DNA of 64,000 nt, from contig OZ024742.1 of assembly GCA_964016885.1 (NCBI GenBank), forward strand, positions 266,476,001 to 266,540,000. The letters run 5' to 3'. Source of the stretch: Eledone cirrhosa. Its lineage: Eukaryota. The translations under genes were made by a program, and so were the position numbers. Numbering within the stretch: position 1 is the first letter of the stretch; each line of letters begins with the position of its first letter. The notes under the pieces are model-generated. The model worked only from the letters and a program-made list of their open reading frames with translations, searched no databases and was not told the DNA's origin. This document shows positions 42,664 to 52,529 of this stretch, in pieces.

Positions 42664-42804
42664 AACAAAGTCAATCTGTAAACGCAGAACTGAAAGCAGC
42701 GATTCTTTGCTTAATATATATATATATATATATATATATATATAAAATATTAAAAAAATAATGAATAAAACAATGAAGCAGTTCCTTATATTAAACAAAA
42801 AAAG

Positions 42805-42959
42805 TTCATTATTTAACGATCGTTTCTAGGATATATATGTGTTAGAATTGGCATGCATATTCAACAGATCTATGTACAAAATTATACAAAATTATACAAA
42901 CTATCAAAATTAAATATACATACCAAACACATATATATGCCGTCTTCAGAAATAATGAA
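42805..42959 (-). ncRNA. Type I hammerhead with long stem II (left-arm copy)
   Basis: Reverse complement of 52177-52331. Confidence 0.75.
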
Positions 42960-45900
42960 ATATATTTATTGATAATAACAACAATTCAAAATTAGAGGTC
43001 TGTTTGGGAACAGAGTTCAAATTGACCAATGAAAATACAAAAAGTTTATACAGTTAGGTGTGTGTATATATTCATATAAGTAACTTCGTTCACAGATATG
43101 CATAAAGATATATGTTCACATGCATACGCTTACCAAAAAGATGTATGTAAATACAAAAATTCAAGGCTAATGTCTCTGTATGTTTATAATCTACAGATAA
43201 AATACGTACCCACATATATAAATATAAAATAAATATATACACACATTCATATACTCACACATATACGTACATTCACACACAGACACGCGTATACGCAAAC
43301 ACATACACACAACCACGAACATACATACACACATACACCGCCACACACATATATATGTGTGTATATACTATTATCATAAGCATATGGATATTAATGCGCG
43401 CACATAAACACTGCCACACACATTTAGATCCAGATACAGAAAGTGGGTGGGTGGGGGGGGGGAGAGGTCAGTATTCACCGGTGTCAGCAGACTGCCTATT
43501 TATAAATGTATCTATAAACTTAGAAATAAAAAGGAAAGAAAAAGAAAAAAGAAATATATCAAGAAAATATATATATATATAATATATACATACACACACA
43601 TATATATATATATATACATACACACATATATAAACAAGTAAATATAAAATATACATCGATATACATACATATACATATATATATATATATATACACATAC
43701 ATACACATACATACATATATATACACATATATACAAACACATACATACACATACATATACATACACACACCATATAAATACACATATACATACACACCCG
43801 CATACATATAGAGACACATACATATACACATATAAATACATAGACATATACACATATACACACACATATATATATATATATACACATATACGCATACATA
43901 TATATACACGTACATTCACAACACACGTATATATATATATATATATATATACATATACATACATATATATATATATATATATATATATATATATATATAT
44001 ATATATATATATATACACATATCTACACACATATATATAAACACACTCATGTATATACACACATACACATACATACCCACATATAAATATATATATATAT
44101 ATATATATACACACACACACATATACACATATATATACACACATATATATATATATATATATATATATATATATACATATATATATATATATATATATAT
44201 ATATAGACACATACATACACACACATACGCATACATATATATATATAAAGATATATATACACACACACACACACATAATAAATATATATATATATATATA
44301 TATACATATATATATATATATATATATACATATACACACACACACATATATACACACATACATACACACACATACATACTCATACATAGACATACATATA
44401 TACTCACACACACATACACACATACATATACGCATATATACACATACATACACATCCATGTAAGCGTATATACATACAAACACCACCACACGCTCACACA
44501 ACTCAGACATACATAAATAAAGGGATATACATACACATATATACATATATAAATAGAGATACATATATATATATATAAAAATATATACACACGTACACAC
44601 ACAAAAACACACATACATACACATACATACACACATACATATATATATACACACATACACACACACACACATATATATATATATATATATATATATATAT
44701 ATATATATATATATATACACATATATATATATATATACACACACACATACATACACTTATATATATATATATATATAAAAAATAAAGAAATAAGATAAAT
44801 AAATAAATAAATAAATTAATACACACAGTCAGACAAATATGCACACACATACATATACATATATATATACATACATACACACATACATATACATATATAT
44901 ATATATATATACACATACATACACATATATATATACATACACACACATACACACATCAACTACAAATATATATATATATATATATATATATATATATATA
45001 TATATATATATATATATAATATATATATATATATATATATATATATATATATATATATATATACACACACACTCACATATACATGCGCACATACGTACAC
45101 ATATACACATACACACATATACACCTAGACATATACATGTGCATACATATACATACACACATATATACCCACATAAATACATAGATACATATATACATAT
45201 ACATACGCACACATATACATATATATATATATATACACACATATATACATATACATATATACATATATATATATATATATATATATATATATATATATAT
45301 ATATACACACAATCATACACTCTTATTTACATGCGCACATATGTATTTTTATACTCACATACAAACACCCAAACATACATACCTACCTACATATACATAC
45401 ATACATCTACGCTTACAAATACAAATAATAATAGTGGGGGGGAAAGGGGGGGGATTATAGTTAATATAGGTTTCAAGAAACATAGAATATTAATCTGCAT
45501 TTAGATCATAATATGTGTTTACATAGTTTCAGTATTAGGAAATGTAAGAAAGAAGGCAAAATTATGCATTTCAATATAATTATACCATTAACCATAGGTT
45601 AACTAAATTAAGGATAGTTAATATATTGATTTCTAAGGTGTATACTACTTAGGTTTATAATATTTGAAGCGGAATTTTGAAGTTAAATAGTAGTAGAGTA
45701 TTAATAATAGTATAACTAAATTAAAATTATTAACGTTATGGTATCAATATTAGGAAATGAATTTAGTAATAGGGAAAAAAACAAATAAAGTATTACATCG
45801 GTAGTAGAATATAAATTATAGGTTAACTAAATTAAAAATTATATATTAATTTCTATAGTATATGTTAATTAGGTTTATAATAATTAAAACAGATATTGTA

Positions 45901-46492
45901 TTTTATCTATAGTAGAATATAATTATAGGTAAACAGAAAATTAAAATTAATACATACACATATACATATACATATATATATATACACATATATATATATA
46001 CATATACATATATATACATACATATACATATTTTTTCAAAAATTGCAAAGAATATATTAACTAGGTATAGATCCAAAACCTATCTCAGTCTATGATTACA
46101 TGACACTCTGCAATCCATCTGTATTAGGATATTAATTTTAAGCCAATTAAATTAAATTTTTAGGTTGACCAAATTTAAAACCAAATTATAAATATATTTC
46201 TAAAATGAACATTAATTAGGTCTATAATACTAAAAATTATTTCTCTGTCATTGAATACACGATATATTGTTATATTTTATCTGTAAAGGAATTTTAATAA
46301 AAAGTTAAATAAATTAAAATTAATCTATAAATTAATTTACGAAGTATATATTAGTGATATTTAAAAGTTTTTCACAATTTATGATTACACAATATTTTAT
46401 AATCTCATCTGTAGTAAAATTTTAATTAAATTAAATTTATAGGTTAACTAACATTTAAATTAAATTATATATTAAATTCTAAAATAATGTTA

Positions 46493-51800: not shown

Positions 51801-52176
51801 TATGTGTGTATGTATGTTCGTGGTTGTGTGTATGTGTTTGCGTATACGCGTGTCTGTGTGTGAATGTACGTATATGTGTGAGTATATGAATGTGTGTATA
51901 TATTTATTTTATATTTATATATGTGGTTACGTATTTTATCTGTAGATTATAAACATACAGAGACATTAGCCTTGAATTTTTGTATTTACATACATCTTTT
52001 TAGCAAGCGTATGCATGTGAACATATATCTTTATGCATATCTGTGAACGAAGTTACTTATATGAATATATACACACACCTAACTGTATAAACTTTTTGTA
52101 TTTTCATTGGTCAATTTGAACTCTGTTCCCAAACAGACCTCTAATTTTGAATTGTTGTTATTATCAATAAATATAT

Positions 52177-52331
52177 TTCATTATTTCTGAAGACGGCATA
52201 TATATGTGTTTGGTATGTATATTTAATTTTGATAGTTTGTATAATTTTGTATAATTTTGTACATAGATCTGTTGAATATGCATGCCAATTCTAACACATA
52301 TATATCCTAGAAACGATCGTTAAATAATGAA
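52177..52331 (+). ncRNA. Type I hammerhead with ~116-nt stem II (right-arm copy)
   Basis: ttcattattt-CTGAAGA-[stem II 52194-52309]-GAAA-cgatcg-TT-aaataatgaa; perfect 10-bp stem I, palindromic stem III. Confidence 0.78.
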
Positions 52332-52529
52332 CTTTTTTTGTTTAATATAAGGAACTGCTTCATTGTTTTATTCATTATTTTTTTTATATTTTATCTCGAC
52401 TCTGTTTTCCGTTTATCTTCCACCGAAAGTGATTTTTCATTGCATCTCTTCTTTCCATGATATCCGGATTACATTGAGTTCTTCATACGGATTGGACACT
52501 ACCGTAAACTCTTGGTAGGTTTATCTACC

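Follow-up and report, generated by a model that had tools for sequence, protein, structure and literature searches.

Anatomy of the insertion and its family

The window examined here is a 64,000-nucleotide stretch of the Eledone cirrhosa genome (GCA_964016885.1, contig OZ024742.1, positions 266,476,001 to 266,540,000 of the forward strand), and it contains a large palindromic insertion of a Penelope-like retroelement. Self-comparison of the window revealed a left arm at 42743-46971 (4,229 bp) and a right arm at 48395-52393 (~4.0 kb), separated by a reverse transcriptase (RT) spacer of 1,423 bp at 46972-48394; this layout had been described in an initial annotation made from the letters alone, and it was borne out. 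Each arm was likewise confirmed to carry an endonuclease region, an AT-rich block, a compound (TA)/(TG)/(TATG) mosaic and a hammerhead fold. The left end and the end of the right arm had also been placed correctly, but the right limit of the element had not, as a 138-nt tail extends it to 52531. The features are as follows, in window positions.

42714..42742, no strand: (TA)n target, left side
42743..52531, no strand: whole insertion, made up of two 5'-truncated Penelope-like copies joined head to head inside a (TA)n tract
42743..48395, minus strand: long copy, 5'-truncated at unit position ~820; its 3' end, without a tail, adjoins (TA)n
42805..42959, minus strand: Hydra-type hammerhead motif of the left arm (predicted fold and motifs)
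43561..45449, minus strand: compound (TA)/(TG)/(TATG) mosaic of the left arm, with conserved landmarks and including a 200-bp block at 44774-44973
45450..46492, minus strand: AT-rich block 3' of the stop codon, with degenerate internal repeats (60-81% identity)
46493..48398, minus strand: RT-linker-endonuclease remnant, amino acids 177-810 of the family protein, with QFD, MGS, YRDD, CxCx5C and YIG motifs
48395..48395, no strand: head-to-head junction with a 1-nt overlap
48395..52393, plus strand: inverted arm, 5'-truncated within the linker ahead of the endonuclease
48396..48872, plus strand: endonuclease-coding stretch of the inverted arm, in an open frame without its own start
49916..51620, plus strand: mosaic of the inverted arm, without the 200-bp block (sense-strand TG/GT 532 versus CA/AC 18)
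52177..52331, plus strand: Hydra-type hammerhead of the right arm, with a CUGAAGA core, extended stem II, palindromic stem III and GUU site
52180 (mirror 42956), plus strand: family-wide 5'-end hot spot at unit position A6042, a likely RNA start
52394..52531, plus strand: 138-nt tail, equal to the first 138 nt of the next unit, at the right end only
52532..54231, no strand: TA-rich target array of 1.7 kb, right side

The minus-strand translation of the spacer and left arm corresponded to amino acids 177-723 of the 810-residue RT-endonuclease protein, the window copy having lost its 5' part up to about codon 177 of 810 and shifting frame near 46757. Between the RT and the endonuclease, a low-complexity stretch rich in N, T, K and H (~47100-47480, minus strand) was reminiscent of the N-rich inserts of Adineta Penelopes. 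The distance from the stop codon to the element end was ~3.75 kb in the left arm and ~3.52 kb in the right arm, and the left-arm mosaic measured 1,889 bp between its landmarks, of which 1,374 bp were alternating purine-pyrimidine tracts; these values agree with the earlier description of a ~3.5-kb 3' untranslated region carrying ~2 kb of microsatellite. The arms had also been said to differ in repeat lengths, point changes and a ~200-bp block, and we found mismatches at 6 of 1,462 scored non-repeat columns (0.4%), together with tract-length differences and indels, and the absence of block 44774-44973 from the right arm. Since this block was present in the long copy of most loci of a comparison set, the difference is a deletion in the right arm. 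The set, referred to as RT-picked, comprised 30 of 39 RT-matched loci, each with 10 kb on both sides (31 loci with the window).

The family unit was 6,254 bp long. An exact hammerhead 20-mer occurred 7,392 times in the genome, with 0 occurrences for the reversed control, and the 39 further best RT matches were all ~100% identical; copies at 90-99% identity were also present in contigs of two other organisms (B and C, runs X4 and X5), and organisms D-L shared a small fraction of its sequence words. An unbroken frame of 827-830 codons from stop to stop was found in five natural copies, with 810 amino acids from the ATG in the copy that was translated. The full frames contained RT motifs and an endonuclease with YIG that was C-terminal and not N-terminal, unlike that of Naiad and Chlamys. 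DKT, a modified DKG, was present in three full-length copies, this region being missing from the window copy. The linker was of the form CxCx5C, CxxC and CxH surrounded E and N, and no CCHH was seen by eye, unlike in Neptune, which has a CX2-5CxxC linker and a CCHH endonuclease motif. The N-terminal site matching RWK contained RWR, a conservative change, and exact RWK occurred in none of the 31 frames. A (TA)n preference was evident from the outer ends, which adjoined TA-rich repeats at nearly all loci, and pseudo-long-terminal-repeat partial tandems, an inverted 5'-truncated copy and a tail at one end were all found among the family loci. The predicted hammerhead fold (z = -6.0) contained the core motifs, was conserved across the copies compared and fitted the Hydra-type table, cleavage itself being a prediction.

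According to the accessible text of Craig et al. (2021; PMC8557442), the Hydra clade shares with this family the C-terminal endonuclease without CCHH, DKT, the CxCx5C linker, CxxC and CxH around E and N, a 3'-end hammerhead with a non-standard first stem II pair and often GUU, and the (TA)n target. Within that clade, Penelope-13_HM has a 966-nt inverted copy and Hydra-1_Obim comes from an octopus. There were also several differences from that account: the listed Hydra entries span 1,080-3,045 bp in a clade that is generally short (<3 kb), so that the present unit has twice the length of the largest entry, the 3' region of 3.2-4.4 kb with its microsatellite mosaic is unlike those entries, the tail is 138 nt instead of the 30-40 nt of Penelope-like elements, the hammerhead is ~155 nt instead of 80-100, and RWR replaces RWK.

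Neither the Rfam rows listed (150 of 184) nor a focused Rfam scan revealed a hammerhead in the element, and the only matches there were low-complexity microRNA hits, all under threshold; the hammerhead call therefore rests on the fold and the Hydra-type motifs. Pfam gave no match for the element protein or three relatives. The sole named protein among the 83 relatives returned was from Octopus sinensis (47% identity over 35% of the query), and none of the 83 was a clade-labelled reference, the Hydra assignment being a motif match and not a placement in an RT tree. Judged by its motifs, target and hammerhead type, the element is a member of a young, abundant Hydra-type family, and the Penelope-like identity first assigned to it was upheld by the RT motifs, C-terminal endonuclease, YIG, hammerhead and one-sided tail.

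Inverted arms, tailed ends and the 5' boundary

Hammerhead ends were surveyed in a census of the first 100 listed on C1, which covers one chromosome segment and relies on exact-match counting. Neighbouring census ends within 13 kb were arranged head to head in 33 cases and tail to tail in 2, and 22 of the 31 RT-picked loci had an inverted arm whose outer end could be seen. The arms had been thought unusually large; this did not hold, as 5 of the 30 RT-picked loci apart from the window had arms of at least 3 kb and large inverted repeats are published (PMC2377424, in its accessible part). The palindrome in the window is an ordinary broken insertion of a kind that is routine for the family. The accessible parts of earlier papers contain similar structures: inverted 5'-truncated copies with a one-sided tail are described for Penelope-like elements (PMC8557442), partial tandems between inverted repeats that vary in size and can be large for Penelope of Drosophila virilis (PMC2377424), and head-to-head inverted repeats with the tail on one of them for Adineta vaga Penelopes (PMC3846280). 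Inverted arms are already known, as are Penelope-borne microsatellites (PMC2377424, PMC7878876).

Exactly one tailed end was found in 60 of 61 palindromes drawn from five sets. The counts were 22/22 for RT-picked palindromes, 20/20 for mini-palindromes chosen by spacing alone (5 of them read by eye), 9/9 for a hammerhead-search set, 6/6 for census pairs with both outer ends visible and 3/4 for nested mini-palindromes, leaving aside three census pairs that had an internal tandem end. For the first 51 palindromes, the probability of this result under an independent 50:50 choice was 4e-16. The tail was borne by the inverted arm at 12 of 22 loci and by the long copy at 10. We also compared each arm with the long copies and found that its nearest relative was its own partner at 18 of 22 loci (9 tied), while two partners ranked second and two were outliers. 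Additionally, 16 locus-private variants in 6 loci were common to both arms.

Mini-palindromes of ~430 bp accounted for 40 of the 100 census ends. Among the census arms, 46 were short and stopped near the hammerhead core, 17 of them at A6042 and 34 within 6041-6044, while 37 ran on upstream and 17 were without the core. The context of A6042, TCATT, resembles initiator-type sequences of rotifer Penelope repeats in the accessible text of PMC3846280. A non-templated G ended both arms at L131, L133, L029 and one mini-palindrome on C8. In another individual, 14 raw reads with 2 start places contained the mini-palindrome joint at 52182-52184, and one contig from a second organism had the same joint as a loose end. 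Where joins could be resolved, they mostly showed an overlap of 0-10 nt or a short, at times repeated, filler, several long-locus joins being unreadable. The palindrome arms were joined directly, with no target DNA between them.

Probable twin priming and alternative origins

The formation of tandem and inverted Penelope-like insertions is presented as an open question in the accessible text of PMC8557442. We consider it probable, from the sequence evidence, that the window palindrome was made by twin priming at a cut in (TA)n, with two start sites on the RNA that lie 138 nt from each other. What the sequences show is (TA)n on both flanks, a single tailed end, the occurrence of the tail on either arm and the common source lineage of the arms. 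In LINE-1 (long interspersed nuclear element 1) twin priming, the two strands of the target are both primed on a single RNA, and the complementary DNAs (cDNAs) are joined by microhomology. That process inverts the 5' part without duplicating it, whereas here primings in the 3' repeat would duplicate the 3' region as a palindrome.

In the proposed mechanism, the protein of the element would make a double-strand cut in a (TA)n tract. One cDNA would start at the tail-less RNA site and the other at the tail site, 138 nt apart, and the two starts would probably share one RNA molecule or a single asymmetric complex. The cDNAs would each run toward the RNA 5' end and stop either variably or at that end (unit A6042), after which they would be joined 3' to 3' and filled in. 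Priming at the 5'-proximal copy of the terminal repeat may allow both to run off after ~215 nt, which would yield the ~430-bp mini-palindromes. The mosaic would travel with the element because it is located between the open reading frame (ORF) and the priming sites, and its tracts may change length by slippage and themselves take new insertions. If the two sites were chosen independently, half of the pairs would have two tails or none, and we saw 1 in 61. A fuller version of the model is more tentative, and we put it forward as a possibility that could well fail: a single RT-endonuclease complex would use two fixed sites of one RNA to prime the two strands of the target, the cDNAs would run off at a capped 5' end that lies within the hammerhead, and each step would be preserved in the family's thousands of copies as strict one-tail asymmetry, run-off ends and ~430-bp mini-palindromes. 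The element would then also bring along, as 2-kb cargo, (TA)n landing pads of its own.

Related systems offer partial parallels. In vitro, the Poseidon protein of an anole cuts the two strands and extends each of them, and RT starts at two internal RNA sites that bound the tail (PMC11167929, accessible part). Penelope of D. virilis and Poseidon of Anolis share with our family a start site within the terminal repeat, a tail bounded by two RT starts, and cutting and extension of both strands in vitro (PMC2377424, PMC11167929). They belong to another clade, and the accessible parts of these papers contain no tail count per insertion and no two-cDNA palindrome model. No earlier twin-priming model or one-tail count for Penelope was found in our literature search, outside of which lay subscription papers and Repbase entries.

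The alternative that survives best, although we judge it unlikely, is fold-back or self-priming, in which a cDNA or antisense RNA would serve as its own primer and duplicate its start, with the tail cut off one end by the endonuclease during integration. Self-priming accounts for arms of the same source and for the short overlaps at the joins, and its parts have been proposed before in the accessible text of two papers, antisense-template self-priming for rotifer Penelopes (PMC3846280) and resolution of the tail by the endonuclease (PMC8557442). It fits poorly with the observation that both arms of most mini-palindromes stop at one sense-RNA 5' end, and the four mini-palindromes with G on both arms have a 1-nt or filler centre that would be hard for a hairpin to prime. 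Moreover, the tail was unrelated to which arm was longer (12 versus 10), and in vitro the tail corresponds to two RT start sites (accessible part of PMC11167929).

Two independent insertions of sibling RNAs, at the ends of one (TA)n break or in adjacent TA tracts and followed by gene conversion, are improbable. Nested insertions do accumulate in TA tracts, and one locus had an arm from a different subfamily, but independent insertions predict two or zero tails in half of the pairs, far from the one case in 61. They also do not suit the excess of head-to-head over tail-to-tail pairs or the lack of target DNA between arms. The one-tail count largely refutes this explanation. That the window palindrome is an assembly error or a long-read fold-back chimera is hardly credible: its central junction was not among the public-contig matches listed for four contig sets, but the arms differ in point changes, tract lengths and the 200-bp deletion, the flanks are not mirrored, the tail is one-sided, the same layout recurs at dozens of loci genome-wide, and a mini-palindrome joint is present in independent short reads.

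Several observations weigh against twin priming, or at least against parts of it, including the junction just mentioned, which was not among the contig matches listed. No intermediate was observed, and at most loci the junction microhomology suits fold-back self-priming equally well. The variants shared between arms could stem from one donor locus or from gene conversion instead of one RNA. The count of G at A6042 was weak (6 of the 17 arms stopping there had G before it; p = 0.055 against 17% G) and is only suggestive of a cap trace. An AATAAA lies 9 nt upstream of A6042, and the site could for that reason be a processing site and not a start. One nested mini-palindrome had no tail, and many census ends had no partner in view. 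At C8:36324451, the arm was 14% divergent from its neighbour and is therefore probably a separate insertion, and at C11:45517713 the arm's own partner ranked 18 of 26, on 78 columns.

Microsatellite cargo, possible double-stranded RNA and neighbouring elements

The mosaic was present at all 25 measurable RT-picked loci, with 878-2,056 bp of alternating purine-pyrimidine tracts, and the unique landmarks inside it kept the same order across the loci; 5 of the 30 loci were interrupted or missing a landmark and could not be measured. The distance from the endonuclease to the element end was 3,211-5,660 bp at 24 loci, foreign inserts accounting for the longest. Census ends that reached the endonuclease or AT block carried the mosaic in 18 of 18 cases (534-1,898 bp), 7 'u1'-only rows having been left out of the full 3' regions, and these included subfamilies that were 77-81% identical beside the hammerhead yet 96-98% identical in the endonuclease. 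One shorter variant had unchanged landmarks and shorter tracts, which fits slippage inside an inherited scaffold. The scaffold itself may be a piece of captured host DNA or may have grown out of a TG-rich 3' region. As judged from this conserved order across young and diverged subfamilies, the mosaic is cargo within the mobile unit, and the check suggested earlier, whether other copies carry it between endonuclease and hammerhead, came out positive in both sets. Oversized mosaic intervals, considered as microsatellite expansions, turned out on checking to be mostly foreign inserts.

The mosaic also served as a target. At least 6 of the 30 RT-picked loci had non-microsatellite inserts of 0.6-6.4 kb in it, and 2 had a nested same-family copy; examples are G000:C8:29539443, C4:184283985, C8:36324451, C1:388895676 and C3:251806952.

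Comparable cargo is described in the accessible parts of two papers. Penelope of penaeid shrimp has recent copies with syntenic microsatellites that are longer after transposition (PMC7878876); that text gives no clade, element position or insertion structure, whereas here the cargo is mapped and its share of the genome is small. The Penelopes of A. vaga have N-rich ORF inserts, and Pen1 has a 0.9-1.5-kb spacer between the ORF and the 3' repeat; the spacer varies by copy as a fresh capture, in contrast to the one heritable microsatellite scaffold found here (PMC3846280).

The suggestion that this family spread the compound microsatellites filling the genome was not sustained. In forty evenly placed 10-kb samples, alternating purine-pyrimidine tracts made up 6.9% of the DNA (bootstrap 4.9-9.0%). 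A census mean of 334 bp of tract per end, multiplied by 7,392 ends, gives ~2.5 Mb, so that with a genome size of 3.0 Gb the family accounts for 1.2% (0.9-1.7%) of these tracts, an estimate that leaves out old decayed families. It is thus very improbable that the family is the main source, even though it disperses a 1-2-kb mosaic, into which about one third of its ends reach, and the mosaic tracts range from 534 to 2,056 bp between copies. Only 1 of the 40 samples held any piece of the family, a single short end, and 5 held remnants of other Hydra-like ORFs. The kilobase mosaic was absent from all three of these other Hydra-like families that were checked (10 copies each), which have short 3' regions and end ~0.2-0.3, 1.2-1.4 and 0.9-1.4 kb past the endonuclease match, in (TA)n.

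The two arms would pair if transcribed end to end. A double-stranded RNA hairpin would need host read-through, because the likely starts at 52180 (plus strand) and 42956 (minus strand) face outward and the copy has no upstream repeat. The ORFs of at least 130 amino acids in 1-42000 were, by eye, transposon or low-complexity frames, short exons falling outside this listing, and no RNA run was among the public runs listed. Singleton changes in the genomic copies had no strand bias (A>G 9.97 versus T>C 11.55 per 10,000), and the landmark alignments gave G>A 30, C>T 29, A>G 24 and T>C 28; the unbiased A>G and T>C changes thus give no sign that edited RNA was retrotransposed. An A-to-G difference at 52226 in public run X6 was considered as editing and rejected, as G also occurs in 3 of 188 genomic matches of an older variant. 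Run X6 was deeper over the hammerhead and tail than over the ORF; its run type is unrecorded, and no expression claim is made from it.

Other repeats surround the insertion. Directly to the left, in the same TA tract, the short palindrome at 42431-42713 is an end of a second Hydra-like family (at most 96-99% identity to L168 and L171-L175). Near-perfect palindromes of 100-140 bp at 61234-61373 and 54333-54431, in AT-rich flanks, are possibly other Penelope-like mini-palindromes, and a 281-bp inverted repeat (98.6%) at 35726-37436, around an ORF with a GIY-YIG-like motif (36335-36778), is likely another Penelope-like insertion. A GIY-YIG fragment (PF01541, E 1.1e-4) lies at 41079-41402 on the minus strand. 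The inverted pairs at 5774-19446 and 19752-26593 (91-93% identity), with remnants of LINE-like ORFs, are apparently separate opposite insertions. On the plus strand, 11534-15175 contains an unbroken RT frame of 1,213 amino acids, which presumably resembles R4/Dong-type LINEs. A tRNA match over the Rfam threshold (36.7 bits) at 54911-54980, in a duplicate spaced by 272 bp, is likely a tRNA-derived short interspersed nuclear element, and 21506-22804 consists of three tandem copies of a ~440-bp unit that are 92-95% identical. Elsewhere in the genome, another young Hydra-like family has four head-to-tail copies with a 3,531-bp period at G000:C1:437201923-437213181, and it forms head-to-head pairs as well.

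The one-tail rule, the long and unambiguous tail and the thousands of copies together provide a signature that can be counted and that tells twin priming apart from self-priming, and this signature sets exact predictions for an in vitro test of how Penelope palindromes originate. The ~430-bp palindromes would be mistaken for miniature inverted-repeat transposable elements or for genes of hairpin RNAs, and the long palindromes for errors of assembly. The family extends the size range of Hydra-type elements to twice what was known, and in it a retrotransposon is seen dispersing a fixed microsatellite mosaic, with a share of the genome's microsatellite of only ~1%.

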